Assembly (NCBI GenBank): GCA_964187785.1
Contig: OZ076409.1
Location: 29,328,001 to 29,392,000 of the forward strand
Direction: 5' to 3'
DNA from: Amphiscolops sp. MND2022
Taxonomy: Eukaryota
Length of the DNA: 64,000 nt
How positions within the stretch are numbered: position 1 is the first letter of the stretch; each line of letters opens with the position of its first letter. Shown one piece after another: positions 1,363 through 55,613 of this stretch. Below the pieces are notes generated by a model. It was not told the DNA's origin. It ran no database searches and saw only the letters and a list, made by a program, of their open reading frames with translations. Position numbers and translations under genes: made by a program.

Positions 1363-1631
1363 TGTACTGACCTACATTAATAACCAATAGTATTTAGATG
1401 TTCATAGAATGTTCTAGAATGTACATTTATTTGTTATTGAATGATTGTAAATCTCTACTCCTTCAGAGAGAGAAAACTAATAATCAGTATTCAGTTGACT
1501 TCCTTTTTGTTCTACTCCTAACACCTCGGAATAGTTGTAATTAAGTAAGCTAGCTAGCCTGTCTCTCAGCCGCTTTTAGTAGTTGCGTATAAGACCATCA
1601 AAAACAATAACCAACCATTAAAAGCAGCACA
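1363..1631 (+). repeat. 5' LTR of giant element
   Basis: TGTACTG...CAGCACA; matches 19610-19878 except for 2 substitutions. Confidence 0.97.
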
Positions 1632-1634
1632 ATT

Positions 1635-1646
1635 TGGTGCGACTTG
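1635..1646 (+). promoter_or_regulatory. Putative primer-binding site
   Basis: TGGTGCGACTTG begins 3 nt after the LTR; TGG is complementary to tRNA CCA. Cognate tRNA not identified. Confidence 0.7.
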
Positions 1647-2113
1647 TAAAATTTTTCTTTTGCCTTTTCTCCTGGATGATTTCTCTTCTCTCAACAATCA
1701 TACAAATACCACTCTCCATATTTGAAATTCTCTGGAATTGCAGTGAAATCTTTCTAGAATTTCTTGAAAGTTTGGTCTGTGACTTTCTAAATTTCATTAA
1801 TAAATACATCATCCTTCGAAACACAATTTCTCCACTACAACAATCAACTTTAATATAACAAATTTTCTTCAATACCGGTTTATCACGTTTTCTAACACGT
1901 TGACACTGTTCTTCTTCCTGTTCTTCTAGCCATACCGGTTTATCACGTTTTCCAATACGTTGAAACGGTTTCTTTTCGGACTGATTTATCCATTGTGACA
2001 CAGTTCTGTTTTTCTTCTTTTTCCAGAATGATTTATCCAAAGTGACACAGTTCTGTTCTCCATACTGATTTATCACAGCTAATCCGGAAGCTTGTTGAAA
2101 CAGTTCTCTGATG

Positions 2114-2250
2114 TTTGTCTGGTTTATCAAGGTTTTCTAACACCTTTGACACAGCAACATTTGTCTGGTTTATCAAGGTTTTCTAACACCTTTGACACAG
2201 CAACATTTGTCTGGTTTATCAAGGTTTTCTAACACCTTTGACACAGCAAC
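2114..2250 (+). repeat. 46-bp tandem repeat x3 in the 5' leader of the giant element
   Basis: tttgtctggtttatcaaggttttctaacacctttgacacagcaaca starts at 2114, 2160 and 2206; related diverged units at ~1872 and ~1932. Confidence 0.9.
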
Positions 2251-3603
2251 TTTCTTCAATCCTGCTATCTTGAACGTCAGGTGGACTCCTGGTGTAATAG
2301 TTGACTGAGTGCATGTCCAACTCCGCTCACCTATAAGCACATACGTCTCAAGATCAACTTCGTGTTGGCAGAAAACCTGGATTTTCTACTTTTACGTTTC
2401 GGATCCCCTTTCTACAAAATTTCCTACAAAAAAATTTCAGAAATAGACTCTGAAAACAAAAAAAGGCAACCAAGACTAACTACCATAAACAACCACGCAC
2501 TATTCCCTTTCTTTCCCTATTGTCGACAAACAATACAAATAAATTCACAAAACTTAAATAATACAAATAACTTCAAAAATGGTTTCAATAACCAACAAAA
2601 AGAACAATAACAAATAAACTCAAACTTACCTCAAGTACTTCCAATAATAATAAATTTAACATAATCCTACAAAACAATTATTTTAACAAAATACAACATA
2701 CAATTTTCACAACTCTTTTGCTTTAAAACTTAAAATAAGGCATGTAAATAACACAAACAAAGTAAAGTTAGTTTTCTACTTTCAGGCACCCACAATTCCT
2801 ATCCCCTCCCGTTAAAATTTGGCCAATCAGACAGCCTCACCAGCGTACTCTGATTCTAAGACTGACTGAAAACCTTAGTTAAGTGTAAACGTTTTTAAGG
2901 AGAATCGAGAGGACACCGAACTACGTTCGAATCTTCAAAATTCTCAGGAAGTAAAAGTAAAAGTAAAAGAAACAAAGATCAAATTTTGATCTTGATCAGT
3001 ATTGATCAGACTTTGGATAGTGGACGTTGATTGTTCAGAGTTCCACTCCTTTAGTCTTAAAACACACAACCCACTTAAAATTAAAACAACCTTAGTTTTC
3101 TGGACGTGTCAGTAACCTTATGTTAGACACCTTAAAGTGATCCAGACTTAAAATAACATTTAGTTTCTGTTAGCAATCCTTTGAGGTTGAATACAGATCC
3201 TACTGCACCCGCTTATTTCTTCTCTATCCTAAAATATTAACTTCTCAAATAACTTCAAATTACAATACAACTTATATGAACCCAAACCAAGAAATTTATC
3301 CTTTCAACTTTTTTTTCCACCAATTAGCTCACTTCAAAACCCTACACCAAACGATTTTGAAAGATTAATTGAACAATATCAACGATATTTCTTCTTTATC
3401 ATAAATCAACAAAGAAATTACCCAATAGCTCGAACTTAGAAAATCTTTATACAAGACATTTCAACGTTATAACCTTCACATTATAACATGTGGGAAAAGG
3501 TTACTACAGTAGTACTCATTACAACATACACGTTTTGTGTCTTATTTATAGTTTGTGTTCTTCTTGAAAAAATACTTACAGTGATAAGAGATAAACTTTA
3601 AAA

Positions 3604-6600
3604 ATGTGCTCAACGACAACCCCTCTACCTTTCCAAACTCCCGTCATTAAAAATGCAAAAGTTGTAAAATTAGAACTAAACCCATTTCTACAAAACATTA
3701 TTTCACATTATACACAACCACTCCCATTTGAAAATGAGCCACACACAATTGAAACAATCCCTCTTATTAGAGAACATTTGGACACATACCTTTTCTATAT
3801 TAGATATAAAGTTTTAACAATCACCGAAGAATACCCACCTTTTCAAATATCCTTTCCTCAACAAAAACTTAACTCATCTCATATATACAGAAGAACAATA
3901 AACCCAATAAACCTTCAAGTTCCTATTAAACAAGTTTTTCATGCTTTTCTAAATAATGTAAAAGACCACAATTTAGCACACGAAATTCCAAAATATAGTC
4001 CAAATGCACTCGACGATCTTCAACGATACATAGACAATTTCGACGTAGAAATTATTGAAACATTGGTTAATCCTGAAGACAACCCTCATCATTGGTTACA
4101 AGCTGACATAGTACGAATTCAAAATTTCATCTACCACTACTTCAAAGACCTAACATTAAATGACCAAACAATTCCTCAGATCAAAGTAATATCTTTATTT
4201 CTCAGAAAATATTTCAGATTTAATTATCAATTATTATGGTCTCAACAAGATCAATCTGCTTTTACAGAATTTCCAGATCAATTTACATTAGAAGAATGTT
4301 TACCATTCATCATCAGTGAACAAAATGAACACCCTTACTTTCATAAACCACAATTAATTACAAAACAAACCTTAGATTACATACGTTTCGATCCTCTATT
4401 AATCACAGAAAATGATCTATTCCCAGATAATAGACCTTACCACTATCAACAAAATTCTCAAGATCAACAAAATTTACATTTTAACACTAACAATTCTACT
4501 GAAGATGATAACACCGATCAGGAAAATACAACCCAACAACAAAATCAACCTGAAAACTATAACGATAACGAGTTTACTACCCAAGAATCTACAATCTCAA
4601 CATATAATCCATCACAAACAGGGACATCAACATCAGTACATACTCACTCCTTTAGAGTTCCCACTAGAGTTGTAAATCAAAGACAAAATATACATAGTCC
4701 TCAATCTCATTTAGATACATCTCCAAACCGTAATATAACTTTTAACCTTCCACATACAGATGACATAAACGATGAAACCCATGATACATTACAATATAAT
4801 ACTATGACTACATCTAGTGCTCAGAATACTTCTGCTAATGTTGCATCTCCAACAAGAACTACCTCTGATTCTACAAGATACATTACTCGACCTAGATATG
4901 ATCCTCCATCAATTCCCTCCGCCTTTCGCTCAAACAGATCGACCACTTCTAGTAATAATTTTAATGATAATCCTCAAACTTCCAACCGATATTACGATCC
5001 ATTTTATTATAACTTTTATCCTCCATCAAACACAACTACCAATACAAATATAAACCAAAACCACTCTCAAATTAATACAATTTCAACAACACAAAACCCC
5101 TTCATACAATTATCAAATACCAATACGTCCCAGAATATATATTCTCAAAATCGAGGAACCTCGTGTACTTCCATTTCTTATTCTAATATTACACAGGATT
5201 CTCAAAGAAGACTTCATATTCCTCCACTTACACATATCCCAACTGATCCTCTGTATCGAATGCATCCAAATCCAAATCTTAACCCTAATCCTAACCCATC
5301 CTCACCAAATACAATCCAACATATACCTCCACCACTCACACAACAATTAGCTTCTTCACACCAATATCTACCAATGCCACAAGATAACTTTATAAACATG
5401 TCCGCTTCAATACCAGAACCTATGAAACCTTTTGATGGTTTGGACCATTCTTACACCCCCGAAGAATATCTACAACAAGTCGAAGCAAGATTAACCTTCG
5501 CCATAGGTGAAGAACCTCAAAATAATCCTATAAAATACAAATCTTGGCATAACAGACGCATGGCTTACATACAATGTTCATTAATAGGAACAGCTCTCGA
5601 TTGGTACACTAACCTCCATATATCATATAAACAACAATGGAATTCCTTTGTACAACTATTCAAAAAACAATTCTCATCTCAAAAAACTGCTTACTACGCT
5701 CAAGTAGAAGCTATGTCACTCATGAAAAAGGATAATGAAACAGTTCGCCACTTCGCCCTTAGAGTACAACAATTAGTTAAAAAGGGATGGTGTAATGAAA
5801 ATGCAGCTACCATAAATCTCAAAAATAATGAAATCTTTACAAAAGGGTTACCAAAGAAGTTAAAAGATTTTGCCCATAAATGACGAGTTAAACATGTATC
5901 AACATTACTTGAACCTTCAATACCATTTCATACACTTGTTAGACATGTCGATTCAGAAGATATTGCCAATGAAAAAATCAGAACTAACGACTTAGCCCTA
6001 GAAATAAACAAAGTATCGCTTGAAGAGGATACTAACAAAAAAAAATTTGAATACGAAGATCAGATAATGGTTACTCAAACTGGAGACCCAAATAACAAAA
6101 GCAAACCAGCGTATAGAAAATATTGTTCCTATTGTCATAAAAATAATCATAGTATTTCAAATTGTTATCAAAAACAACGTGATGACGAATACCAGAACTA
6201 CAATAACCAAAGATCACGAACTCCTCAACAATCCTTTGTACAATATTTTCGCAGTAAACCTAATAATCCTCAGGAAAATCGAAATGAAAATACAAACTCT
6301 TATTCCTCAGATAATGATCGTAATAAATATAATCAAAACTACTATAATGATAGATACAGAAACAATGATAGATATCGTAGCAATAGTAGAGAATATTCGC
6401 AAAACAACTATAGATCAAACTCTCGACAAAGATATTATAATCGATCCCGAAGTCTGTATAGATCTCGATTTGATAATTATTATCAAAGAAGAACTCCATC
6501 TAGATCTCCATATAGATCTCCATACAGAAATAACTCAAATTACAGATATAATTCTCGCTCAAGATACAGATCTCGTTCTCAATCACAAGGAAACTCCTTT

Positions 6601-7212
6601 AAACGATATAATTATCCATATAGATCTCCATCAAGACCTAGAGATTTTAGATCAAGATCTAGAACACCCTCAAGAAACAGACAACAAAACAGAATAAATC
6701 AAGTAGACGTTAAACCCCCAAAAGAAAATGATAGTACAAAATTTGAAATCCACACCTGTCAAATGACTGAAATAGCTAATACAATCACCCTTTATAGTTG
6801 GTTTTATCCACTATATATTCACGCCTCTGAAACAAATGACAACATATTACCTTCAAAATTAGAAATCTTATTCCTTTTAGATACTGGAGCTTCCATATCT
6901 GTTTTGAATTTACCAACATTTAATGTAATTTCCAAACAATTAAACATCAATGTTCCAACTAACCTCCAAAACAAAAGAGCCAAAACTCTTACAGTTGCAA
7001 ACCAAACTGAAGTACCAATAATACATTTTATTTCGATGACCTGTTTCACTGAAGTAAATCACAAAACACGATCCTTCAATATCGATTTTGCCGTAGCAAA
7101 TATCAAATACAACATTCTTGGAACACCCTTTTTCAAAAAGCACATCCAAAATATTGATTTTCAACAAAACATTATGACGTACACAGAACAACATCCAAAG
7201 CTTTCAAAAAAA
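3604..7212 (+). pseudogene. gag: Gag-protease, interrupted by one in-frame TGA at 5881-5883
   Basis: Capsid-like block PFDG...LIGTALDWY...W..F...F...ETVRHFALRV; CCHC knuckle CSYCHKNNHSISNC; RS-rich tract; aspartic protease LLDTGASIS...ILG. ORFs 3604..5883 and 6067..7440 share a frame with no other stop between them. A decayed N-terminal extension may start at ATG 3276. Confidence 0.9.
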
Positions 7213-10200
7213 CTACATTTTCTACATTTACAGAAAAAGATTATCCATATATTTCTTACATTTATACTATTAAATGTAAGGAACCAATTCACTTTAAACC
7301 AAGGTCAGGAAAAACCATACCTTTTCCAATTAAAAACTATTCAAATCTACATTTTGAACTCGAAGATAATACGAAGTTCTACCCAACAAACCCATATACA
7401 TATTTCTTACAAAAATTTAAAAATATCTTTCATTTCTTAGACATGATAGTCAATGAAAAAAGCAAAGACTCATGTGCAACTATAATTCAAAACTTTACAT
7501 CTTACCCAGCTACATTACCACGAGGAATTATTGGATATATAGAAATACCTATTACGCAAACAACTCCTCCTCACTACAGAGTTAACGATGTAAATTCACT
7601 CATTCACTCTGTAATACATGCATATCACCCTGATACCACAACCCCGATTAAACAAAATCCATATACAGATATGAACTTATGTACTAGGGTAATACCACAA
7701 TCCCTATTAGAAATAAACAAGATAGAAATTAACGACAAAACACTTCAACTTCCTATACCTTCTGTTACTGGAAACCTTCGACCTTCAGATAAATTTCGAA
7801 AAGATTTCCCTCCAATACCCTATTCTACAGAAAACCAACAATTCATAAAGAAGTTCAATTTCGAATACTCAGATTTAACCGATACAGAATATGTAAATCT
7901 CTGCAAGATTCTAATTAACAACCAAAATTGTTACGCCAAACATAAAAACGACGTAGGAAAGATTTCTACTCCTTTTCGAATTAGAATAAAAGATAATTGT
8001 AAACTTCACACACAAAGACCTTCTAAAGTACCTATCCACTATAGAGATAGACTAAATAAACTTTTACTAGAACTCGAAAAATACAACATCATAAAACAAA
8101 TTGGTTCGACAACAGATGAAAAACATACTATTGGAACAACATTTTTAAACCCTTTAATTATTATCCCAAAAGGAGACGCAATAAAAGTTGTTTTAGACGC
8201 AAGACATCTAAACTCAAACACTAACCAAGAACTTGAATCTTGGCCTATTGAACCTTTAGCTCCTCAATTAGCTAGAGCAAACAAAAAATACAAATCAACT
8301 ATTGATCTAATGTATGCATATGCTCATACACCATTAGATGAAGAAACAATTAAACTTACAGGATTTTCATCCGGTGACAAATTATACGCCTTTATTCGTG
8401 GATTTTACGGATTAAAAGGACTTCCAAACTTCTTCACAAAACAAATGTCAACTTTCTTTAGATCACTTATTGACAAACGTTCTGCGTTAGTTTATATAGA
8501 TGATATTCTATTACTCGCAAATGAAAAACAAGAAATGTTTGAACTTATAAAAGAATTACATACAATAGCATCTCGAGAAAATCTCAAACTTGCACCTGAA
8601 AAATCGTTCTACATGTTACTCAAAGTAAAATTCCTTGGACATGAAATTGGTAACAACACAATTAAGCCAATTCCATCCAAAATTGAAGCTATTAAAAGAA
8701 TCCCATCACCAAAAGAAAAGAAAGATGTTATGCAATTTCTTGGCAGTGTTAACTTTTATTCAAAATTCATTGAAAAACTTCATATAAACCTTAAACCATT
8801 GTATACATTACTACATGATGATGTTAAATTTCAATGGACACCTGAATTAGAGAAACTATTTCAAAATGTTAAAAACGCAATGACAGCAAACACTGAATTA
8901 ACAATACCCAACACCACGCATCCATTTTTTATAACAGTAGATGCTTCGTTAGTAGGTTTAGGCGCAGTCTTATTCCAAATGAACGAAGAAAATAAGATGA
9001 AAGTAATTTCTTATAACTCCAGAATTCTCAATACACAAGAACAAAAACTTTCAACTTTAGACAGAGAACTTCTTGCAATAGTTTACGCATTACAAATATA
9101 TGAATTTTTGATCATTGGATCTCCTCATCCTATATATCTCTTCACAGATCACAAGCCTTTACTACATTGTTTCGCAAAGAAAGGAAATCTTAGTCCTAGA
9201 TTCTATAGAGCACAAATGCAATTAACCAAATTTTCCAAATTAAAAATCATTCATACCCCTGGAAAAAATTTAACTGTAGCAGACATGCTTTCAAGAACCT
9301 TTACAAAAGAACAGCTACAAGTACACCAATTACGACACAAACAATTACCACCTCAAATAGATTTCTCTATCATGAAAGATAATCAACTCAAACCAGTACA
9401 TTATTTAGTAAAACATGAAGAAATAAAATATAATCAAAAAAAAGATTGTCATCCTATCCTTGCTGACTACGGAGACGACCAATTCTCCATCCGTATAAAT
9501 AACAAAGGAGAAGATATACATATAAAGCCTTTAGATTCCTTCTCTTTTCAATCTATTGTTCCATTCGAATCAAAATATAAAAAGCCTACAAAAAAACAAG
9601 CAAAATCTCTTTTACAACAATCGACAATTCTTAATGATACTGACATTCTTAGTGATGAAGATGAAATAACACCATCAAATAATATCCAACAACAAAACTC
9701 GAACATAGTAAAAAAATACACCCTTGCTATACAATATCCTACCAAATCTGACTATTGTACACAACAAGTTCCATTTTTTGATCCATCCTTTTTCAAATAC
9801 AAAAATTATTTTAATTACTTCTTCCTACCAGAAGATACACAAATAACCATTGAAACAATAAAAACTCAACAAAATCAAGATACTGTTTTACAAAAGGTTT
9901 ACCAATGGATACTTAATAATGAAAGACCCTTACAAATAGACCCAACAAATGCAGCTAACTCTTTCTTATTAGTATATTACAAACTCTTCAACCAATTATA
10001 TATTAATCATGATACAAAAATTATTCACATAGATTATCCTAATCTTCACGATTCAAACCCGAATCAAAGAGACAAAGTATGTCTACCATTTAAACTTTTC
10101 CACACAGCTTTTAACAAACTTCATGCTCATGGACATTCAGGAATAAAAATATCCATCAAAGCTTTCAACCAATTTTACTTCATACCGTACCTGAATAAAT

Positions 10201-11637
10201 GGATGTCAATATTCATCCATGATTGCATTGAATGCCAACAAAATAAACATATTAACCAAAAATTACAAACTGCATCTATACAAACCTTCTCAGAAAATGC
10301 TTCATATTTTAATTACCGAATATCAATGGATACAAAAGGACCTATAAACCCACCATCAAATCAAAATTCATACATTCACGTTATAGTAGACGCTTTTAGT
10401 CACTTTGTAGTAACAGTACCCATAAAACAAAATAATGCTCAAAACGCTGTTAACTCACTACTACATCATTGGTTAACAAAATTTGGACCTCCTGTATACC
10501 TAGTTACCGACCGTGGAACAGAATATATTAATTCAGAATTTGCAAATCTTTGTATCACAATGGGAATTAGACATTCACCAAGAACTCCTTATGCACCATG
10601 GACAAATGGTTTAGTTGAAAATCAAAACAGAAATCTTGGAACTCATCTCAGACTTTTCTTACATAACACTCCAGAAAATTGGTCAACTCAAGTCCATATG
10701 TATGCTTATGCACATAATTCACAACCACTTTCTGAATTAAACTTATCTCCATATGAAATAGTATTCCATACTATACCCAGAATTCCAATCAACTTTGAAC
10801 TCAATCTCCAAAGAGATACATATAGAAATTGTACTTCTCAATATTGTCAAGAATTACCACTTCATACACACTATGACAAATCAAATCTAAACCCTTTCTT
10901 TCATAAAATTTTATCTAAACCAATTCCACAATGGATCTTAGCTACTGAAACTGCTATGATACAGATATACCATACGGTATATGAAAACACAAAAAGAAAG
11001 ATTAATTCCTATGCTTATTTTAACAAAACATATCACAATCCAAGACCCTTAGATATTGGTACATTTGTACTAAAAGAAATTTTCTCCATGTTCATTTTTC
11101 CGATAAATTAAAACCTCTCAGAATTGGCCCATTCAAAATTATTAACAAACTCTCCGATATAACATATGAAATTGTTAATCAAGATGGGTATACATCGCAC
11201 ATACATAGAAATCATTTAATTCCTTATTATCCAAAAGAACCAGTTATTTTCCCTTTCATACAACAATATAACCCTCATTTATTTAATGACTGTCATTCAA
11301 ATACAAACGATCAAATAATTAACTCTGATGAAGACAAATATACAGACGAAGAACAATTTCCTTCCACAACATTTAATAAAGAAACGGATATACCATCCAC
11401 GATTGACTTACAACCAGAACCATTTAACCAATATTCTTCATTTCCATATAAACAAAAAGAACAAATTACTCAAAATACCTCCCTGGATAACCAATCAGAT
11501 ATTCATGATTATGATAATTTTATTAATCCCCAAGACACTCCTATAATAGATACAATTTCCGCCCACAACCAAGAAAAGACTACCGACTCTTCCTTGGTGA
11601 AAAGGATATAATTTCATTTTCTCAAAAATCCTGCTGA
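7212..11637 (+). CDS. pol: Pol: reverse transcriptase, RNase H, integrase with GPF module (frameshifts at ~7210, ~11075, ~11535)
   Basis: RT VVLDARHLN and YIDD; RNase H TVDAS, RELLA, TDHKPL, ADMLSR; integrase HAHGH..CIEC, MDTKGP, TDRGTEY, NGLVE. The -1 frame after 11075 gives KLKPLRIGPFKII...YEI. All catalytic residues appear intact. Confidence 0.95.
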
Positions 11638-11806
11638 AATACGGAATACAGAAAGAAATACACACAAAGAAAGTTTGAAAGAAAGAAAAAGTTTGAAGCT
11701 TAATGCGAAAATAAATGAAATTTATTTCACGAATGAGAATAAAAGAAAGAAGTCCTAATTGATATAAAACTATAACTATTTTACAAGCTGAAGCTAACTA
11801 TCATAA

Positions 11807-13276
11807 CACAACGATTTCAAAATTGATAGACATATTCACTCACCATCATCAACTACAAATAACTCTTCTTCTAGTTCAACACATTCACTCCAAAGATTAC
11901 CTGAATATACAGCATATTTAAACTCAGATACAGACATACTGGATTCCTCATCCTCAAATCCCAGTCCATCCGCTCCATATACTCCTGATAGAGTACCAAC
12001 AACACCCACTAATACACCTATATCCCAAACTCAACCACAAATATTAACAACTCAATCACAACCTATTTCACGAAATCTAACATTTTTAGAAACAAATTCA
12101 CCACTTTCTGACTCTAATGATGAAACACCTACAATATCAAATACACAAGATACTTCAGATATTTTGAATAGACCTCCTCTTCCACCGATTACTACTACTC
12201 GTTCTATTCATATCCCTGATCCTAGCTCAGTCCTACAATACATAAATTCTTGTCCACACAAAGTACCAACTGCAACGAAAACAAAAAGAAAAACTCCTTT
12301 ACCTACATTACCACAAAATCTTGATTTACCATCATCAAGTAATATCCCAATAACATTTTTACCAGAACCTTCATTAAAATCACCAACGAAAAAATCACAA
12401 CAATACCCAACTCCTTCACCATCGGAACTAAGTTCCTTCACATTTTCTCAAATATATCCCAAGCTTGAATTACAACGTGTACATTCAACAACTACCTCTT
12501 CATTAACAGATTTATATCATAAAGATAAAGACTCTGACTCAACTGCTAGTACTAGAGTACCAAGACATAATTATAACCTTCGATCTCAACAACAAAGAGA
12601 TTCTCAAGAATTACAATCCTTAACTAGTTCAAGTACAAACTCAAGACTACTTCGACAACACGCCCAACCCAGATTGGACACTTCTTCTCTTTCCTCATCT
12701 CAGCCCACTATACCATCTTCTCTATCACAACCATTTCAAATCACATCAGGATTTGAAACAGCCTCTCTTATTTCTGAAGAGCCAGCAACTATATCAGATA
12801 GCGCAGCTAATTTTTCACGAGTTTACTCACCTAGTTCAATAGCATCAAACTCCTCTATACAATTACCTGAATATTTTTTAGAAGAATTCTCAAGACCTCC
12901 ATCGCCAAATCCTCACGAATATCCTATTCGTATTAACTCAAAAATTGTTCGCACGCTTAACGAAGATCCTCGATACACGGTATTACCTGCAAGATTTATA
13001 AACAATAGTTCACTCTCAACTCAAAGAAAACAAAGAGAACTACGAAGATTACAAGAACAACAACTCACATTAAAATTTGAAGTAGAAGTCACATTCAACT
13101 CGTTAGGACCTCATCCATTCTCTCTTTCAACAAGAGTAGCACATAAAACAACCCCATCACCATTCATTGTTACCTCCATTTCCTACCTTTGTGACGCAGA
13201 TTTACCTGAGATTAGAACAGGACATATAAACTTTTTTAATCCCTACTCAGGACTCAATTATAGATCAATATTTTAA
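11807..13276 (+). CDS. Accessory ORF3: Ser/Pro/Thr-rich disordered protein with a short C-terminal globular segment; no ATG start
   Basis: Frame open from 11807 to TAA 13274-13276 (~490 codons; the track starts it at TTG 12164). Contains PSAP and YPKL motifs. Confidence 0.7.
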   Translation, partial: HNDFKIDRHIHSPSSTTNNSSSSSTHSLQRLPEYTAYLNSDTDILDSSSSNPSPSAPYTPDRVPTTPTNTPISQTQPQILTTQSQPISRNLTFLETNSPLSDSNDETPTISNTQDTSDILNRPPLPPITTTRSIHIPDPSSVLQYINSCPHKVPTATKTKRKTPLPTLPQNLDLPSSSNIPITFLPEPSLKSPTKKSQQYPTPSPSELSSFTFSQIYPKLELQRVHSTTTSSLTDLYHKDKDSDSTASTRVPRHNYNLRSQQQRDSQELQSLTSSSTNSRLLRQHAQPRLDTSSLSSSQPTIPSSLSQPFQITSGFETASLISEEPATISDSAANFSRVYSPSSIASNSSIQLPEYFLEEFSRPPSPNPHEYPIRINSKIVRTLNEDPRYTVLPARFINNSSLSTQRKQRELRRLQEQQLTLKFEVEVTFNSLGPHPFSLSTRVAHKTTPSPFIVTSISYLCDADLPEIRTGHINFFNPYSGLNYRSIF

Positions 13277-13278
13277 CC

Positions 13279-15858
13279 ATGAACCAAATCACCTTTACCT
13301 TTCATTTAATATATATAATACAAGTTGTTAAATACACGTATATAATAAATATAGTTCACTCTTTAGTTCACCCTTCAACTGTTCCCAAAGTTGACACCAC
13401 CAATTCCGAAAATCATATTTCAGACCAAGATCCTAACATTTTAAACTTAATGGTATCTCATTATGATTGTGCAAAACAAAATAACTTAAGACAATTCAGT
13501 TTATTAAATGCAGAACCATGTAAACAAGCACCCTCAGATATACAACACACAAAAACCCAAGCAACAGTTTACGTTAGAGCAAAAGCCAAAAGAATCAAAG
13601 CCTTTAAATGTGAAGCATATATAAAGACTGAGAAAGTCTGGTGTTCACAAACATTCACATCTAGTAGACGATATGATCGTTTACAATGGGGACAAAACAC
13701 ATTAGAACTTCCAAAAATATTGGACCCTATTGAATGCAAAAATATGATCAGATATTTAAACGCGACTGATAGCGAAGAATTAAAAAACTACAATATACAA
13801 AGCTCTTTCTCATTGTTCGACGATAGTAATTATCAAAACACAATTGAACGAATTCAGACACCATTTAGAGTAAAACAATTAAATACATGGCATATTGGAA
13901 CCTTCGTATTTGACGAAAATTATCCTGATTGGATAGTTAATGTTACACAAAATACATAATCTAGATGTCGATCAGACCGCGAACATTTAATTACCCGACA
14001 AAGTTGGAAACTTAGAATTGTTAACACCGCAATAGATTATGACGATAAAAACAATCAATTAATACATGACGGACACAAATTACCATGTTATCATTCAGAC
14101 GGATTTTGTAAACCAACGACCAAAACTCCATATACATTAACATGGTTTGATGAAAAATTTTGCCTCATATTTCAACTTCAAGAATTCATTGGTAGAATGA
14201 CACGAATCAAAGATAGATATTGGATAGAAACCAATACCTTCATTGAAACTTCAAACATCACACAAAAACTTCAAACCGAAGGAATACAAGGAACAAAATA
14301 CCCTAATATAAAAACACCACAATCAAAAGTAAGCAATCCAAGCCTTTCTCGATTTGAAATATACCCAATTGCACAAACCTTCTGTGGAAAACCTGAACCA
14401 TTATTTTCAACACAATATGATGACATCTTTGTTACATACTTAGATGGTTTTGATATGAACACAGGATTACCAAAACCACACTCAATAATTGACCAAACAA
14501 TTAGTGGAAATATAAAATATGATGATTCAAACAAAAGGTATATATTTCCTGCATTGAATATATCAAACAATTTCGCCACTTTAGACTATGATGCCCACAT
14601 TAATACAAAAATTGATTTCACAATAAATCATGTATTTAAATCCATGACAGTACAAGAACTAAACACTCTTCATACAATATGTGAACTAGAAAGAACTCAA
14701 CTGTTAACAATACTAGCAATGTCAGTTAAAAATCCCCAATTAGCCGGTTTTCTTTTAACTGGAAATCGTAGTAACTTTCTCTACGTTGAAGGATCTACAG
14801 CATGGCTGTATGATTGCCCTCATTTTATATCACCACTATACAAGGCAGATAAATGCTTTGATAGAATTCCTATACATTACAGAGAAACGATAATGTATGT
14901 TGACCCAATAACAAGACAAACTTTTAACTACGCAACACCAATTGAATGTGGAAATAACCCACAAAATATAATAGAATTAGATCCAGATTCCAACGACGGA
15001 GATTTTTATGTGTTAACACCAGAACCACTCAAACGAGAAGCACCACAAATGTTTAAACCTACCCAAATTAAAACAACAATCACTCCTAATACATTTACCG
15101 CCCAAGATGCCGGTATATACTCAAATGCAGAATTAGATCAATTCTGGAATAGAGTATTATTTGCTAAACATTCAGACACAACTCTTCAATTACTTGGAAA
15201 ATCATTAAGCTATGATTTCATTTCAATGCATAATGAAAAACACTCATACTCAGGACATAATCCCTATAATCATTTAAGGATTGGAGTACATGACCACTTG
15301 TTAAATCTTTCACCACTTTTAAACCCTGACTGGTTCAGTCAAGCATTCATTAATTTCTTTGGATACCCATGTTATGTTTTAACCCAATGTGGAATTTATT
15401 TTTCAACATTCCTTTTCATTAGAGAAGTTTTAACATTTTTACTCAAATTCTACAGAACAATTAGCATAAAATATAATCTCCAAAGCAACATTTCCATTTT
15501 GAGTTCAATAGCCCATGGATTTTTTAATATAGTTACATCGGAAATGGTAACCGATTTAAATAATACAGGAAAACGAAAACGGATATACACTAAACACAAA
15601 ATTACAACAAGTGAAAATGATAATATCCTATTGCCGGAAAAAGAATTAAACAATAAACGAAGACACTCTGATACTGACTCCCCTTATTTACCCCCTAAAT
15701 ATTCCAGTAAGAATTCAACATTTCAATCACCGCAAAAGACACACCCAACTAATGTAAACCATATTAATTCTCAGGACTATGACCCAATAATGTCAATTGT
15801 AATAGCTGTACCGGAAAGTCTTTATAAAATTCAATCCCTCCTAGCTGAAAAGCAATAA
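13279..15858 (+). pseudogene. env: Envelope glycoprotein, chuvirus-like class III fusogen, with one premature TAA at 13957-13959
   Basis: ORFs 13279..13959 and 14197..15858 are in frame and joined by open sequence. Hydrophobic N-terminus; motifs HYDC..N..FSLL....C, LPCYHSDGFC..TLTW, ICELER..L..LA....P..AG.LL, KCFDRIP..YVDPITR..TPIEC, GIYS..EL; N-glycosylation sequons; C-terminal TM segment and basic tail. Confidence 0.85.
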
Positions 15859-16263
15859 TTTAAAAAAAAACAAATTAACCTCAAGAAAAGTTCACAAAAT
15901 TATCAACCAAATTCTTCTCAGTTTCAACTTTCATTCACACCCAAATTCTCACTCGGACCGGTCTCTCCTTTTCAACTCAACTCAACTCTCAACCAGAAGA
16001 CTTCAACTGGATTTTCAGTCCATCTAAACGACCGAAATCACAGAAGTTTCTATTCCTGGAATAGATGCCACTGTGATTGTTGATGTTTTCAACCCATCAT
16101 TGACCCAGTATTCCCATATTGTAAGTACAATTTAAACTTTAATTTTAACAAACAATTTATTGGATAGAAAAGACATAACAAAAGTTTTCCTTAGTATTAG
16201 AAATTATGTAATCAAATGTTATAATCATTATTTTAGCTCTACAAAAACACGCAAGTTTAAATA

Positions 16264-17556
16264 ATGGAATCCTTGCCTGAAATTGATGTAGTTAACTCTA
16301 ATCCCTCTGAATTGCTTGCAACCCCTTTGAATATAACTATTCAACAAAATGTTGACGAAGATAATAACTCTTCCTCAAACTCTCAAGACCCTATAGAAAA
16401 TATCCCTATTGAACAAGTAGATCATGTTAACACAAGATCTCAAAAAAGAAAGTACCCAGATATAACCGCAGATAAACCTTTTATGGAATCTGGCGCTTGC
16501 CCTCCTTTCATAAAACCAATTAAACAAGATGAAGATAGAGATTGTGAATTAGTTCCTATTCTCTCGTCGAAACAATTCACATTTCAATCTCAGTTAACTT
16601 CGTTATACATGATTCCAACAAAATACACATTCATCATCAGAGAATTTAAAAATGATTATCATACATCAATTGCTTCAAAACTGATTACCCCATATGATTG
16701 GTGGTTAAACAAGAAAGTGAAAATTTTCTCACTTCAATACAACTTCCTCAGACCATCTCCATATGATCTTCGAACAGAAGAAAATGATGCAAATTTTTTG
16801 CCATATCAAATCAAAAAGGCCCACCATATGACTTATCAAAAGTTCCTTCAATATAAAGAGCCCGATAATTATATATTCTTCAACTCCAAATATACATCGC
16901 CATTCACTTTCAACTCAGAATATTTAATAGATCATACCAAAACAAAAGGAAAACTTAGAAATTATGACCCGCTGAAACAAAGTTTTCTCTTCCTTCCAAA
17001 TGATAACCCAAAAAGACCAATCATTGTTCCACAAGAATACCTCATTCTAAACGACGATTCGTTACTACAAGAAGATATACCTCAATATATATCTGATCCT
17101 CTTCCTCCACTTCAACAAATAGCCTCTCAACCATTGGGAGACTGTGAAAAGTCTTATTTCCACGCAATGATCAAAAAGGGATATTCAAATAATGAATTAA
17201 TTTTCATTATTTCCCACCTGCTTTCACTTCTTACAAATGGAAATCACAAAGAATATAAAAAGGCAAAACAAGAAACGCCTAAGAAAACCAAAAATGATAT
17301 TCCTCAACCACAAAGTTTTCGGCCAACAGATGAATTACAGAAATATACAGAAATTCTGAATATCATAAAACCGTATCATCATCCAAACCGAGATATTCTT
17401 ATAACAATCGCTGAAATCGTAAATACCCTTGAACAAGCTCGAAGCATAATACAAAATATCGTATTTGATACGACAAGAATTAGCCAATCAGCTTTGTGTA
17501 TTCGCACATCCTTAGACGAATTCAACTACACTATTGAAAAAATGCATCGATCTTAA
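16264..17556 (+). CDS. Accessory ORF5, 430 aa, unknown function
   Basis: Intact ATG-to-TAA ORF inside the element, with the same A/C-rich codon style as gag-pol. Confidence 0.75.
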   Translation: MESLPEIDVVNSNPSELLATPLNITIQQNVDEDNNSSSNSQDPIENIPIEQVDHVNTRSQKRKYPDITADKPFMESGACPPFIKPIKQDEDRDCELVPILSSKQFTFQSQLTSLYMIPTKYTFIIREFKNDYHTSIASKLITPYDWWLNKKVKIFSLQYNFLRPSPYDLRTEENDANFLPYQIKKAHHMTYQKFLQYKEPDNYIFFNSKYTSPFTFNSEYLIDHTKTKGKLRNYDPLKQSFLFLPNDNPKRPIIVPQEYLILNDDSLLQEDIPQYISDPLPPLQQIASQPLGDCEKSYFHAMIKKGYSNNELIFIISHLLSLLTNGNHKEYKKAKQETPKKTKNDIPQPQSFRPTDELQKYTEILNIIKPYHHPNRDILITIAEIVNTLEQARSIIQNIVFDTTRISQSALCIRTSLDEFNYTIEKMHRS

Positions 17557-17901
17557 CTGGTAATTATGGGATAATAGCTTTAAAAGTTGTTAACACTTAT
17601 CACTTAATCTCTTAACAACCTGTCAAAATTAATTGAATCTACACGCATATGCCTGCTATGCATGATTCTAATACATGCTTGATGTTAAAATACACTTTTA
17701 AAATGAAATAACATAAAAATTTCAATCACGACATAAAAATTTTCAACGAAATTCTTCAATTGCTCCTCCTTTTAATGGACCGATTTCATTAAATAAGTAC
17801 TTATATGAAAGATATTTAAATACCCTTCAAAAGACTTCCAAAATACAACACCTTAATTCTTAAAATTAAAAAGTTATAACATCACAAAATTCAATAAAAA
17901 A

Positions 17902-18555
17902 ATGTCAACTACGAAATTCTATTTTCAAAGGAACTTTATTGTAAACAAACTAATCTATTTTAGGTGAATATCGTCACAACTGCTTCTTCAGCATTCCTTC
18001 CTCCTCTCAGGTCACCCATTCAAGAAGAATTCCGAAGTATCTTCTACAGCTTTCAACGAAATTTTCTCATTCCTCAATATGACAACTATCCACTCTGGCG
18101 ACATTGACTGCCCGATAGCTCCTTTTCTTTCAATCTCTTCAGCTCGATTGCAATCCTTGATCCTGAAAAAGCATTTAACGACATTAAATGCGCAGCTTTG
18201 AACAGAAAAAAAGGCAGACCCACATCTTACAAGGATGATATTGCTTAATATGTTCCAAATATTCCAAATAACAAGAATAAATTTCGACCAATATCTCCAT
18301 ATTCATAAACATCCTGACACTTATTCAACTCGAAAGGATGCCACTACCCAAACAGAACATACTACCAACAAACCCAAGCGTTTAATACGAACTCTATCCA
18401 ATAGAATGCGTTCCGAAATGGAAAAACAACGTCTAAATTCGTATTGGCCCTCAGATGACAATGATGACACTGACGAAGACCTTCAAAAAGATCCCCCAGA
18501 AGCACTTATAGATGATAATTACCCACACAAAACATATACTTACGTTTCCTTCTAA
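17902..18555 (+). pseudogene. Possible decayed accessory ORF6
   Basis: Protein-like fragments (FRSIFYSFQRNFLIPQYDNYPLW; ILDPEKAFNDIKC; ORF 18235..18555) broken by stops and frameshifts. Confidence 0.4.
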
Positions 18556-19594
18556 TATCAACAGACGCCACCAACAGCACCCGTCTACTCCCATCTTCGA
18601 ATTCCACATCTTCAACGAGCAACAGACCAGCACCCATCTTCAACTTCACCGCCGCCCAACAGTTGCCCACCTTCATTCATCTGCTGACCCTTCTTCTTCC
18701 ATCTTCCAATCGTCCATCGTCACCCACATGCTCAGCCAAAGATGATTGATAAGTAATAATAAAGAAAACTCAAAGAAAAACATTGTGCATGATAACATTT
18801 CGAAAAAGTTTCAAACTCATCTAATATTTCATACAATTCAAACTCTCATCTAAATTATTCATTATGTAGTTATTATTTCAAATTTCATCCCCACCCACAT
18901 TTATTTGCCCAAAAATTTTTATTCCCACCTTTACCGATATTTATTTGCTTTATTTTTAAAGAATAATTAGTAATAAGTATTATTTTTCGGTGCTATCCTA
19001 CCCAACAAAAAATTCACAAATATTATCAACAAATCTTTTCAAATTTCAACAAAACCAGCTCCAAATCAGATCAAGCACATTGTTCAGATCAAATTCGAAT
19101 AATGACAGACCCCAGTTCTCAAAGTTTTCAACATTTGTTACATAACAAACCCGCCAAAGTTAATTACAACCTGAAATCTTTTCAAACGTATTTCACGTTC
19201 GAAAAATTTTTTTTTCTCAACAATATTGTTTCTTTGACTCTTTGATCTCTAACTCGTATGATGTTTGGTCACGTTTGTTCAATGCGAAGTTCATTCAAAA
19301 CTTCAACAGAAGCATAAAATTGAGCATCTACCAGTTCAAAAAACAAGCCGACGAAAGCATAGTGAAAAAGAACACTTTGACGCTTTTGAACTGTAGTCGC
19401 ACCTACGAGGTGTCAATCAAAATTTTGACAATTCGAGGTACACCAATGAGTCGAACTTACACCACTCTTAACGAGACTTATGCCAATCATCCATCAAATG
19501 AAAAATGTTAACTAGCTGAAACGCTAAGAACATTTAAACAAAAAATTTTTCTTCATTTCAATTAATGATGCTACTTTAAAATTTTATTTTATTT

Positions 19595-19609
19595 AAAAAC
19601 CGGGATGGA
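19595..19609 (+). promoter_or_regulatory. Polypurine tract
   Basis: AAAAACCGGGATGGA directly abuts the 3' LTR. Confidence 0.75.
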
Positions 19610-19878
19610 TGTACTGACCTACATTAATAACCAATAGTATTTAGATGTTTATAGAATGTTCTAGAATGTACATTTATTTGTTATTGAATGATTGTAAATC
19701 TCTACTCCTTCAGAGAGAGAAAACTAATAATCAGTATTCAGTTGACTTCCTTTTTGTTCTACTCCTAACACCTCGGAATAGTTGTAATAAAGTAAGCTAG
19801 CTAGCCTGTCTCTCAGCCGCTTTTAGTAGTTGCGTATAAGACCATCAAAAACAATAACCAACCATTAAAAGCAGCACA
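19610..19878 (+). repeat. 3' LTR of giant element
   Basis: 269-bp direct repeat of 1363-1631, followed by the CTAG TSD. Confidence 0.97.
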
Positions 19879-20621
19879 CTAGGGACGTCGCTCCGCTTCC
19901 CTTCGCTCCTGTACTTAGGGCACTAGAAGTATGTGAACATAGCTGACTAGGGGAATGTGAAAAATTCATTTTTTCATCTTTGAACGGACTTCATTCCAGT
20001 TCGACCCCTGTCAGCCAATCAGATTGGACGAGTGAAGAAAACCACGTTTAAACGACGCTGGGATTTCTAAGATTTTGAAAAAATATATATTTATATGCAA
20101 ATATATTTACATTTAAAAATAAAAATTTCATTTTTCAACTCAAACAAATAAATTACATCTTTAATGTGGATAACTTCTAGAAGAAAATGTTTTGCATAGC
20201 TAGCATTGCAATGCTTACTCGCACTTCTAATTTTGTAGAGCTTCCCTTCAATCTTGCAACCCTGAAACTTGACGATCAATAAAACGAGTGTTGCCAATGC
20301 ATTCCGAATAACAAGTCTTCCTATTTGCTGACAAACGTTTCTGGATCATTAAAACTGTTGATACCGTGATTGCTAATTTGAATAAATATATATTGTTTCA
20401 ATGACATTACCTTTTTTAAGGGGGTTATGTTCATGACAAAATTTTTCTTCCTAATTATATATAAATATATTTCTACAACCCTTGTCAGTCATATCTACCA
20501 CAAAAAGTAAATCCGTGACAATCAGACAATGTCCATTAGTAAGCATGGTAAGAATGTTTTCCGTACTATAGTCCTTGTATTAATCGAACGTTTTATGTTA
20601 GAGTCCTTTTATGGAGTTCGT

Positions 20622-21139
20622 CCCTTGTTGAAACTGCTTGAATTTTTTGCATGTACTTTAATGTTGCCGGCAAATTTTAGTATAAGTTATTAGAACTCTT
20701 ACTGAAACCTTCATGCGAAAATCTTTCCCTGTTCTCTTCGCATTAGATTTTTGTCAAACCGCTTGAAAGATTCATCAGAGTTTCGACGGCAATTTTAACC
20801 TCTGAGTTTTTGCAAGTTATAATAAATAGGTCTATTTTTGAAAGCAACCTAGGAGTTATTAGTTTCAAAGCAAAACGACTTCAGGGGCGTAATAAACTAC
20901 AGTTCAGCGTCCTATTTGAGAATCAGTGATCACACATGTGAGGAAACAAAGGATGAAAACAAAGTGATTGTTTCGGTAGAGAAGTGGAATTTGTTTTTAA
21001 TTCAATTGTGTAGTGAAAAATGACGTGTAATTCTACACTACTTACCACTGACACCTTTCCGAATTTTTGATGTTTTAAAAATAATTACCCTGCACGCAGG
21101 CCTGCAGCGTCTAAACAGTTCCAGCAGACTCAACTAGGG
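20622..21139 (+). mobile_element. Diverged member of CCCTAGT MITE family
   Basis: Starts cccttgttgaaactgcttgaa and ends actcaactaggg; similar layout to 825-1362. Confidence 0.6.
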
Positions 21140-54689: not shown

Positions 54690-55613
54690 TTAGGTGATAC
54701 CAGGAAAATGTCCAATGGTGGCAATAGAGACATAGACGCGATCATGTAGAATAACTGTGATACCAGTTTCTGCAAAAACGTCCATGACACTATGATAGAA
54801 GTTGTCCAAGCTGCGAAGTGGGCGCTCAGGGTCAACTATGGGGAAGTGAATGTCAGCGGTTCCATTGGACAATAAAAAAGCTTTCAAATGTTCCAAGCAT
54901 AGGAAGAAATCATCGGTGATTTGGGGTGCACACTGGGAGGGGCGTGCAATCAGCAGGTGGACAATCTGGTTCTCTAGGAAAGATGAGGCTGGGATAGTTG
55001 GGACCTCACCAACTTTTGGGCGAAATTGGAATTTGTTTTCGATGCCATACTCGCGAAGAATGTAGCGCAAGGCTGCGGAATAAGTATTAAGGTCTGCAGG
55101 GCAGCACATTGCTACATGGCCCTGCACTTGCAAGAAGTCAGTTTAGTCGTATACAATATAGTAGACCAAGTTGGGTCGTAAGGCACCAGGAAACACGATC
55201 TGACGTCCGGGTCCTTTTTCGTCAGCTGGATCGAAGTGGTTCTGTCCCCGAATAGCAGTCAGGTCCTGCCATACGGACCTTGATAGAGACTGATTATCCA
55301 CATTCGCCGTCGACCATGCGCCAAGAGTACCAAGTACAGTGTGGATCGTTACAGGCCGGTTAAAGGAATGAGTCCAATCATCCAAAAGGCGAATACGAGG
55401 AAAGTTGGCGAACAAAGAGATGATCAGCTCTAGCCACCGCCGGAACTGGAGTTTTCCACGATAAAGATCAACGATGTGGAAGCACAGAATTGAATCCCCA
55501 GTAACCACAGTCCGCAAACTTTCTAGACAACTACGCAAGCTGTCAGGCCGGACCAACGAGTGAGTGTGAGAGGCAGTTACAAGTAAACACCAAAATTGGG
55601 CTGGGCGATACAC
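54690..55613 (-). pseudogene. Tandem TARG1/OARD1 (Poa1p-like) macrodomain-like region at the end of pol; in-frame TAA at 55143-55145
   Basis: HVAMCCPADL...EYG...PKVGEV...HLLIAR...DDFFLCLEHLKAFLLSNGTADIHFP...VMDVFAETGITVILH parallels TARG1 AHCISED...KFG...KSGEV...YYLITK...[23 protein letters not shown]...IEEVFEATDIKITVY. The upstream unit LLVT...LRSCLESLR...W..LI..LF is weaker. Confidence 0.7.

Follow-up and report, generated by a model that had tools for sequence, protein, structure and literature searches.

Retroviruses with accessory genes are usually seen as a vertebrate speciality. Cer1, an element of C. elegans, measures 8.8 kb. It belongs to Ty3/Gypsy, has a single gag-pol frame and carries after pol a large frame, CERV, which lacks a start codon of its own and has no homologues outside its lineage (PMC10309623). 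CERV is expressed from RNA spliced from gag exons and is required for export of the genomic RNA, and Cer1 has no fusion glycoprotein (PMC10309623). Envelope genes of the gB type occur on Ty3/gypsy elements across animal phyla (PMC13524379). These elements, the "errantiviruses" of Chary & Hayashi (eLife 2026), mostly of the "ancient" group, encode an env similar to gB and chuvirus glycoproteins and are present in numerous near-identical genomic copies (PMC13524379).

Giant LTR elements, i.e., planarian Burro, plant Ogre and fish foamy-like ERVs, are oversized and have extra coding capacity (PMC6431247). Burro exceeds 30 kb, exists in thousands of copies and encodes a polyprotein of ~5,000 aa with host-like domains, in which a mononegavirus-like fusion glycoprotein lies in frame between gag and pol; the size of Ogre is owed largely to long LTRs (PMC6431247). 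Mosquito BEL/Pao elements have captured a Chuviridae glycoprotein (PMC7642597), and bdelloid rotifer LTR elements have ORF3s downstream of pol, which are partly enzymatic (PMC5408684). In RTBV and badnaviruses, which are plant pararetroviruses (Caulimoviridae), consecutive long ORFs without internal AUGs are translated by leaky scanning, with a non-AUG codon as the first start (PMC5902531).

The element studied here is an LTR element of 18,516 bp at positions 1363-19878 of a 64,000-nt window from Amphiscolops sp. MND2022 (GCA_964187785.1, contig OZ076409.1, 29,328,001-29,392,000, forward strand). All features below are numbered within the window and lie on its + strand. With a probability of roughly 75%, we read it as a recent, decayed insertion of an abundant Ty3/Gypsy family encoding gag-pol, ORF3, a gB-type env, ORF5 and probably ORF6, the downstream genes of which would be expressed from subgenomic RNAs.

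While the env type and the many near-identical copies are shared with the elements of Chary & Hayashi, we note three differences. First, the present element is about twice their size. Second, ORF3 occupies a pol-env gap of 1.67 kb, which is above the 1,000-nt pre-filter limit of that study. Third, two more frames lie 3′ of env, whereas three ORFs only were sought in that study (PMC13524379). Such elements can escape surveys that look for gag-pol-env in no more than 10 kb. Like Cer1, the element has a single gag-pol frame followed by a large start-less frame, but it also encodes a fusion glycoprotein (PMC10309623). With Burro it shares a mononegavirus-like fusion glycoprotein and, counting candidates, a copy number in the thousands; the Burro-type arrangement was nevertheless rejected, because env is here a frame of its own downstream of pol. 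In contrast to Burro and Ogre, the extra genes are separate frames without known domains, and the LTRs are only 269 bp (PMC6431247). Capture of a negative-strand-virus glycoprotein is common to the mosquito elements, which belong to a different superfamily, and a frame after pol is common to the rotifer elements, the ORF3 types of which differ from ours; as described in the accessible text of these reports, neither carries the present gene set (PMC7642597, PMC5408684). The likeness to RTBV and badnaviruses is limited to a translation strategy that we infer from sequence, and the likeness to complex retroviruses is one of gene content, the element lying outside Retroviridae with a Pol that is nearest, among solved structures, to that of Ty3. 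Thus, the suggestion of the first-pass annotation that the lineage is possibly undescribed was too strong for the kind of element, since gB-env Ty3/gypsy elements, giant LTR elements and extra ORFs by env are all in print (PMC13524379, PMC6431247, PMC5408684, PMC10309623). What is new here, as read from the sequence, is an ATG desert ending at the env ATG, and an intron-like segment and a conserved 34-nt element before ORF5.

Boundaries, gag-pol and damage of the window copy

The boundaries were obtained by direct reading and self-comparison. The two 269-bp LTRs (1363-1631 and 19610-19878) have TG...CA ends and are 99% identical, with two mismatches, and the target-site duplication CTAG lies on both sides (1359-1362 and 19879-19882). 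Duplications of 4 bp also surround five of six other full copies, the sixth being one base off, and the genome holds at least 40 copies of the 5′ LTR at 99-100% identity. The LTR pairs are identical in five of the seven copies, which were picked by LTR similarity; such identical pairs, together with the many near-identical copies, speak for recent activity of the family. The insertion in the window is young.

The primer-binding site TGGTGCGAC (1635-1643), 3 nt past the 5′ LTR, has the same letters in all seven copies and is common to a sister family, B. It pairs with the 3′-terminal 9 nt, CCA included, of tRNA-Met(CAU) genes in the same genome, a match of only 9 nt; in family B, 11 nt match tRNA-Met(CAU) and 13 nt match tRNA-Val(UAC). 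Insect errantiviruses use tRNA-Ser, tRNA-Lys or tRNA-Leu, and none of the 1,512 rows of the table in the same paper has a PBS or tRNA ending ...TCGCACCA (PMC13524379). Membership in the insect errantiviruses (gypsy, ZAM, Idefix type) was rejected on the fit to tRNA-Met(CAU) and on an env that is not of the baculovirus/paramyxovirus F type. The LTRs, the duplication and the PBS were thus all seen as first annotated. Of the polypurine tract, what stands is a purine-rich run (19602-19609) that adjoins the 3′ LTR and ends the 3′ untranslated region (18556-19609), but it is short, which makes it a weak candidate.

The internal part measures 18.0 kb. In the family, gag-pol (3604-11611) is one frame of ~2,680 aa. 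At its N-terminus is a conserved Gag domain (about 3604-4470) that family B and P0413 also have; next come a low-complexity stretch, the CA domain (5569-5785), a CCHC motif (6124-6165), the protease motif DTGA (6880-6891), RT (8274-8649, with YIDD at 8493-8504), RNase H (8835-9234), the integrase zinc domain (10092-10251) and the integrase core (10311-10599), after which comes a C-terminal SH3-like part. Gag, RT, RNase H and integrase have Pfam matches. Among solved structures, Ty3 Gag-Pol is the best match (E = 1.3e-55), followed by caulimovirus (8e-26) and foamy viruses (3e-18). The pol order PR-RT-RNase H-IN, a Gag with a CA-like domain and CCHC knuckle, and TG...CA LTRs with a short target-site duplication (4-6 bp class) are features of Ty3/Gypsy (Metaviridae), to which the family is assigned by sequence as an endogenous-retrovirus-like member. 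The Pfam domains and the LTR-to-LTR span bear out the earlier description of an unusually large Ty3/Gypsy element with an env gene. Within the family, the Gag N-terminus has a dN/dS of 0.65, no different from the off-frames.

The window copy contains three in-frame stops, three frameshifts and one deletion in the env tail. In gag-pol, a stop at the gag/PR boundary (5881-5883) and frameshifts near 7207, 11074 and 11531 split the frame into gag (3604-5883), PR (5884-7440) and RT/RH/IN (7158-11111); env is interrupted by a stop (13957-13959) and has lost 11 nt near 15814, and ORF6 has a stop (18199-18201). Comparison with other copies showed that the splits in gag-pol and env and the ORF6 stop are private to this copy, and the gag|PR, PR|RT and IN|IN-C junctions are read through elsewhere. 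In 2 of 35 scored copies, gag-pol is open over 2,676-2,681 aa and the matched stretch is free of stops; this count, like all those of scored copies below, is drawn from the best-scoring candidates and is hence biased towards intact copies. The annotated layout is therefore right in the positions of its frames, but not in its separation of Gag/PR from RT/RH/IN, which is private damage, and the copy in the window cannot be infectious, as had been thought possible.

ORF3 and the env gene

ORF3 (11807-13276; 489 codons) has a Ser/Thr/Pro-rich front, a conserved C-terminal third and no Met codon. It stays open although the base composition predicts stops at ~6.7% of random codons, and is without a stop in 70 of 87 scored genomic copies. 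The counterpart in family B, 418 codons long and likewise without Met, is 41-45% identical. No Pfam match was found for ORF3, and its within-family dN/dS of 0.73 is no different from that of the off-frames. From 11734 to 13278, i.e., over 1,545 nt, the only ATGs in any frame are those at 12117 and 12120, which open a frame of 15-16 codons; env starts with the ATG that follows. Dinucleotide shuffles contain 10.3 ATGs on average against the two observed in family A, and 9.2 against two in family B, and in each case 1 of 2000 shuffles was as low. In both elements, the longest ATG-free gap falls in the ORF3 region. Such an AUG desert before env fits leaky scanning.

A different reading is that ORF3 is no gene of its own but, through splicing or frameshifting, extends Pol at the C-terminus or supplies N-terminal sequence to an Env precursor. 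The absence of Met in both families would suit this, as would the position of the frame: the pol stop is ~170 nt away in A and 105 nt away in B, and the 3′ end of ORF3 touches or overlaps the start of env. However, stops intervene between pol and ORF3 in both families, the open gag-pol frames end short of ORF3, and env is equipped with an ATG and an N-terminal hydrophobic segment of its own. In addition, the frame offset from pol to ORF3 is +1 in A and −1 in B, which argues against a programmed frameshift. We consider this reading unlikely, and treat ORF3 as a gene of its own.

The env gene (13279-15858; 863 codons in open copies) encodes a predicted class III (gB/chuvirus-like) fusion glycoprotein. 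It matches PF24664 with 72 bits in the window piece and with 89.3 bits (E = 2e-25) in an open copy, against a cut-off of 27. In a Foldseek search with a predicted model, every entry listed among the 58 matches at E ≤ 0.001 is a herpesvirus gB; this is a local similarity (TM 0.09-0.17) obtained with a low-confidence model (pLDDT 39.7). By profile and predicted fold, env is thus of the Monjiviricetes/chuvirus-like, herpesvirus-gB-like kind, and not of the baculovirus F type to which the first-pass annotation had referred. As judged by hydropathy, a candidate signal peptide or N-terminal membrane segment and a candidate C-terminal anchor lie at peaks at aa 8-26 and 704-722 in family A and at aa 27-45 and 715-733 in family B. 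The gene is free of stops in 40 of 53 scored copies of A and in 49 of 50 of B, and the dN/dS between A and B is ~0.12, with dS saturated.

The region downstream of env

ORF5 (16264-17556; 430 aa) is intact in the window copy and has an acidic N-terminus, a conserved core (about aa 95-285) and a helical C-terminus. It shares 40% identity with its family B counterpart (447 aa) and has no stop in 83 of 98 scored copies. Against older subfamilies its dN/dS is 0.13-0.17 (dS 0.4-0.9); ORF5 is under strong purifying selection. ORF3 and ORF5, both kept in A and B, are by this comparison real conserved genes, in agreement with the complex-retrovirus-like gene content proposed at first. The accompanying expectation of dN/dS < 1 is borne out for ORF5 and env; the within-family value of ORF3 resembles the off-frames.

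Upstream of ORF5, a 34-nt element (16057-16090) with a YAG-type acceptor-like motif is 91% identical between A and B and is the only significantly conserved non-coding island in this comparison. The two families read it in different frames, which marks it as a cis element and not as coding sequence. An intron-like segment, GTAAGT...TTTTAG (16121-16235), lies in the 5′ region of the putative ORF5 transcript and contains the sole GTRAGT of the element. It is identical in all seven young copies. Among older copies, the donor is kept in L052 and L053 and altered in L054, the acceptor is kept in L053 and L054 and one base off in L052, and the interior is rich in indels, a pattern that suggests an intron; family B does not have this segment.

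ORF6 (18079-18555; 158 aa from the first Met, in a frame open from 17968) is probably a gene. It is open in six of seven copies, as well as in 145 of the 150 that were scored, and its 3′ part has a within-family dN/dS of 0.31 in frame vs. 0.98-1.46 off frame; in the 5′ part, the in-frame value is 1.24. Older subfamilies retain a C-terminal motif, and the three older copies examined are frameshifted there. No significant match to ORF6 was found in family B.

These frames bear on whether the element spreads only within cells, with env and the extra frames as passengers that are open merely through the youth of the copies. Each of the seven copies examined in full has at least one broken gene, within-family dN/dS is just 0.6-0.7, and the thousands of candidate copies would be expected of an intracellular amplifier. 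However, env and ORF5 are open and constrained across deep splits (A vs. B and between subfamilies, respectively), env is free of stops in most scored copies of both families, and the ATG desert, kept in both, would have no purpose if env were not translated. A purely intracellular element thus seems quite improbable.

Still less probable is a joint acquisition of env, ORF5 and ORF6 from a negative-strand RNA virus of the chuvirus-like kind, which would make the 3′ half a viral gene cassette. The env does belong to a Monjiviricetes fusion family, and ORF5 is about the size of a mononegaviral nucleoprotein. However, neither ORF5 nor ORF6 matches any Pfam family or solved structure, ORF5 has no Atlas match either, a profile search returned only fragments of the same family, and the predicted ORF5 model (pLDDT 36.9) is unusable.

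The family and its proposed expression

All six other full-length copies are colinear with the window copy over their entire length at 97-98% identity. Family B, with a Pol ~65% identical and a length of 18,134 bp, has the matching gene order gag-pol, ORF3, env, ORF5 and a 179-codon frame. The doubled size, and the lack of Pfam families other than env in the block at 11.8-18.6 kb, might suggest that this block entered an ordinary Gypsy element by a single nested insertion or is an artefact of chimeric assembly. This is refuted by these six LTR-to-LTR copies and by the order and size of family B, and the block has no flanking internal LTR or duplication; it is part of the element, as first annotated. 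The family is very abundant, with thousands of candidate copies in the genome, many of them near-identical.

In the expression scheme that we favour, the full-length RNA would serve both as genome and as gag-pol mRNA, and the downstream genes would be expressed from subgenomic RNAs. ORF3 lacks an AUG, and the nearly AUG-free stretch extends up to that of env, so one RNA probably serves for both; on it, translation of ORF3 would begin from a non-AUG codon or from an AUG contributed by an upstream exon, and env would be reached by leaky scanning. For ORF5, the conserved 34-nt element with its acceptor-like motif and the small intron in the A lineage make a spliced RNA the probable messenger. Env would carry particles between cells, e.g., into the germ line, and ORF3, ORF5 and ORF6, which are putative soluble proteins, would probably be regulators or virion components.

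More tentatively, A and B may form a "complex" Metaviridae lineage that became retrovirus-like by its own route, with a gB-type env and three accessory proteins, one start-less and CERV/Rev-like from a bicistronic ORF3-env RNA and the others from spliced RNAs, still infectious and expanding in its host; we regard this as possible but doubtful.

A Ty3/Gypsy lineage thus keeps, in two long-diverged families, a gB-type env along with at least two extra genes that are subject to purifying selection, and its sequence points to modes of translation and splicing that are otherwise familiar from pararetroviruses and retroviruses. Young and extremely abundant, the family is a natural system for studying which genes beyond the usual set are required by an endogenous retrovirus, how packaging and reverse transcription cope with a genome of 18 kb, and how a captured negative-strand-virus envelope joins the gene expression of a retroelement.

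In the leader (1632-3603; 1,972 nt), a search gave no convincing 5′ splice donor, and comparison of copies gave no conserved frame. The leader contains a perfect tandem repeat of three 46-bp units at 2114-2250, and its length varies among copies.

Boundaries, copies and decay of the element

The first-pass annotation described the element at 1363-19878 as flanked by 269-bp LTRs with two mismatches and a CTAG duplication, and as carrying a primer binding site (PBS), all of which is borne out by a repeat search and by direct reading. The repeat search of the window returned a single direct-repeat pair at 1363-1631 and 19610-19878 (269 nt, 99% identity), and direct reading showed that the LTRs start with TG, end with CA and differ at two positions, with CTAG on both flanks. 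Three bases 3' of the 5' LTR lies the PBS, TGGTGCGAC, which is complementary to the last nine bases (including CCA) of tRNA-Met(CAU) genes in the same genome. A pattern for the tRNA-Met(CAU) 3' end, to which the PBS corresponds, gave 500 matches on one strand, mostly in a dense tandem array on one contig (G000:C12, about 35.58-35.66 Mb; sampled at loci L055 and L056) with spacings of about 220, 440 and 660 nt. The polypurine tract that had also been reported is weak: the stretch before the 3' LTR shows a slight purine excess only.

Unlike its flanks, the element has a plus strand that is strikingly A-rich and G-poor. Across 1363-19878, the coding strand consists of about 40% A, 28% T, 22% C and 10% G, with a GC skew of -0.27 to -0.42, and this asymmetry stops sharply at the LTRs. 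The leader contains a perfect 46-bp tandem repeat in three units (2114-2250) and varies in length among copies, one of which has about 900 extra bases. Of two candidate frames near the 5' LTR, an antisense frame of 172 codons (1618-2136) was rejected, being broken in all six other full copies and by one stop in the window copy too, and a small frame over the LTR end and PBS (1622-1855) has a weak family B match (E 4e-4) that probably stems from the common PBS region. Outside the LTRs, the host DNA holds a 70-nt direct repeat (1168-1237 and 20939-21008, 70% identity), possibly part of an older repeat that was hit by the element insertion.

In the 1.07-Gb assembly, 40 of 1,411 candidates were scored, which gives at least 40 LTR copies with 99-100% identity. 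Six further LTR-to-LTR copies were taken from the LTR match list, a choice biased to similar LTRs, and all six are full-length and colinear with the window copy at 97-98% identity. The first-pass annotation had asked whether other full copies lack the 11.8-18.6 kb block; given this colinearity, that is not what was found, and the window element is a member of a family (family A, i.e., the window element and its near-identical copies) and not a chimera. The LTR pairs are identical in five of the seven copies and carry two mismatches in the other two, and the 4-bp duplications are perfect in six and one base off in the seventh. Two family A copies (L039-L041 and L042-L044) are enlarged to 20.6 and 22.6 kb by internal duplication, of about 2 kb within pol and about 4 kb spanning pol to ORF3.

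The separate Gag/PR and RT/RH/IN frames of the first-pass annotation reflect damage private to the window copy, since gag, PR and RT form a single continuous frame in other copies. In the window copy, an in-frame stop interrupts gag-pol at 5881-5883, and single-base length differences from the other six occur near 7207, 11074 and 11531; its env is cut by an in-frame stop at 13957-13959 and has lost 11 nt from its tail near 15814, and its ORF6 has a stop at 18199-18201. Broken in gag-pol, env and ORF6, this copy is not potentially infectious, contrary to the proposal. Two mismatches in 269 LTR positions imply that some tens of substitutions are expected across 18 kb since insertion, and we therefore infer that the damage is compatible with neutral decay. 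Each of the seven full copies is broken somewhere; full-length open frames are present in three of them for ORF3, two for env, four for ORF5 and six for ORF6.

The intactness survey drew on these seven copies and on genome search tables, which favour intact copies and give copy numbers as lower bounds from the best-scoring candidates; in the tables, ORF3 is stop-free in 70 of 87 scored copies, env in 40 of 53 and ORF5 in 83 of 98, and ORF6 is open in 145 of 150. A 1,318-aa PR-to-IN query scored 35 copies, of which 18 are stop-free across the match; two of these 18 matches belong to open frames 2,676-2,681 aa long, as a frame running from the gag ATG to the pol stop should be.

Gene content and its conservation in a sister family

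The frames lie where the first-pass annotation placed them. Pfam models in the element comprise Retrotrans_gag, RVT_1, two RNase H models and the zinc, core and C-terminal SH3-like domains of integrase, with PF24664 (Monjiviricetes fusion glycoprotein) on env. The gag-pol frame contains a CA-like domain, one CCHC knuckle, DTGA, YIDD, RNase H and an integrase with HHCC and core; its best solved relative is Ty3 Gag-Pol (E 1.3e-55), with a caulimovirus and foamy viruses behind. Gag 5' of CA consists of a conserved domain of about 290 aa, common to family A, family B and one more family and without a Pfam match, and a long low-complexity stretch. The open env copy of family A, P0001, scored 89 bits for PF24664 (cut-off 27). 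Foldseek with the env model, which is poor (pLDDT 39.7), returned 58 matches at E<=0.001, and those listed are all herpesvirus gB with very low TM-scores. By the PF24664 score and the gB rows, env is not of the insect F type, which the first-pass annotation had cited for insect errantiviruses. Hydrophobic segments lie near the N- and C-terminal ends of env, and phmmer against the PDB gave no match for it.

An env-like protein encoded in the same genome, P0004, shares 60% identity with env and led to family B, a sister family of the same layout. As defined by two fetched copies, family B is 18.1 kb long, with 421-bp LTRs, TG..CA ends and a 4-bp duplication; the first nine bases of its PBS are identical to those of family A, and its frames follow in the same order. 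Identity between the families is about 65% in the Pol part of gag-pol, 37-47% in the Gag N-terminal part, 41-45% in ORF3 (418 codons in family B), 61% in env (a 927-codon frame in family B) and 40% in ORF5 (a 449-codon frame in family B), and dS is saturated between them. Fifty family B env copies were scored at 98-99% identity, 49 of them stop-free. One family B copy (flanks L045-L047) is inserted in a decayed element of a third, related family, which has about 74% nucleotide identity to family B and a fragmented ORF3 and env. Three family B env copies at G000:C9:7861239-7900349 lie on one strand exactly 18,204 bp apart, a spacing suggestive of elements arranged in tandem with common LTRs.

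ORF5 is the best-supported new gene. Two older subfamily copies retain it at 78-85% amino-acid identity (dS 0.4-0.9), and comparison with them gave dN/dS of 0.13-0.17, in agreement with the value below 1 for which the first-pass annotation had suggested looking. ORF5 has no Pfam match and no usable Atlas match, and a PDB profile search stayed at noise level (e.g., designed coiled coils at E 0.0035, cofilin at E 0.1). Its AlphaFold model is unusable (pLDDT 36.9), with no Foldseek match at E<=0.001, and the 489 proteins that a profile search retrieved from 1.84 billion representatives are for the most part short pieces of the same family. ORF3, also without a Pfam match, spans 489 open codons where about one in 15 random codons would be a stop, and it is conserved in family B, best in its C-terminal third.

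ORF6, which has 158 aa counted from the first Met, is a probable gene. Among seven copies, its 3' part gave dN/dS of 0.31 in frame vs. 0.98-1.46 off frame, whereas the 5' part is without frame-specific constraint (1.24 in frame). Its conserved C-terminal motif persists in older subfamilies despite a frameshift there. ORF6 has no Pfam match, and neither it nor the 179-codon frame at its position in family B has a significant match in the other family. No internal paralogy was found among the Gag N-terminal domain, ORF3, ORF5 and ORF6. The view of a giant, young, env-bearing element with real accessory genes is upheld; the observation behind it is confirmed, and its interpretation was partly right.

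Candidate expression signals downstream of pol

Met codons are entirely missing from ORF3, in families A and B alike, and hardly any ATG occurs, in any of the three frames, between a point just 5' of ORF3 and the env start codon. This desert spans 1,545 nt in family A (two ATGs observed vs. a shuffle mean of 10.3) and 1,234 nt in family B (two vs. 9.2); among 2000 dinucleotide shuffles per family, one was as low in each case. The longest ATG-free gap of either element lies within this region, and no frame opened by the leftover ATGs exceeds 16 codons. Rice tungro bacilliform virus and badnaviruses have AUG-free ORFs, the first with an AUU start, such that ribosomes scan on to the next ORF (PMC5902531), and the AUG-poor region from ORF3 to env would, judging by its sequence, follow the same design. 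An alternative route for a start-less ORF downstream of pol is that of Cer1 of C. elegans, in which such an ORF obtains its start from gag exons via splicing (PMC10309623). Neither the family A nor the family B leader contains a 5' splice donor matching at least 7 of 8 consensus positions. Directly 5' of ORF3, direct reading revealed a short A/T-rich motif, common to both families, which may be an internal promoter or a splice site. We infer the expression mode of the downstream genes from such signs.

A 34-nt element 5' of ORF5 (16057-16090) is 91% identical between families A and B, constitutes the sole significantly conserved non-coding island between them and includes a pyrimidine-AG acceptor-like motif. 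Its reading frame differs between the families, so its role would lie at the DNA or RNA level and not in coding. A 115-nt intron-like segment at 16121-16235 starts with GTAAGT, the only GTRAGT in the element, and ends with TTTTAG in family A and older subfamilies; it is absent from family B. Of three old copies, two retain the donor and two the acceptor, and the interior is indel-rich. Directly 3' of the env stop and in the same frame, a 74-codon open frame (15859-16080) terminates inside the 34-nt element; its dN/dS in the seven copies is 0.55 vs. 1.04 and 1.49 in the other frames, and it may be a read-through extension, a small exon or a chance occurrence.

Published relatives and a second remnant in the window

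The 1,512 Ty3/gypsy elements with env that Chary and Hayashi described (PMC13524379) come from most animal phyla, carry an F-type or gB-type env and in many cases occur in several near-identical copies; the kind, i.e., env-carrying Ty3/gypsy, is therefore already known. Their survey sought three ORFs only, and its pre-filter allowed a pol-env gap of at most 1,000 nt and, for most non-insect genomes, at most 10 kb in total, whereas the pol-env gap of the window element is 1.67 kb. Their element table has no PBS/tRNA ending like that of the window element. Giant LTR elements such as Burro, Ogre and fish foamy-like ERVs are reviewed in PMC6431247, and PMC6431247 and PMC5408684 deal with the capture of ORFs, either between pol and env or 3' of env. 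In the literature compared, we found no match for the gene set or its two-family conservation, nor an AUG-free ORF3 before env or an intron-like segment, which does not imply absence from print or Repbase.

The minus strand of the window also contains, at 54690-63333, a Ty3/gypsy remnant that is GC-rich (about 50%) and unrelated to the element, in which neighbouring open frames without Pfam matches accompany RNase H and integrase domains at 57243-59414.
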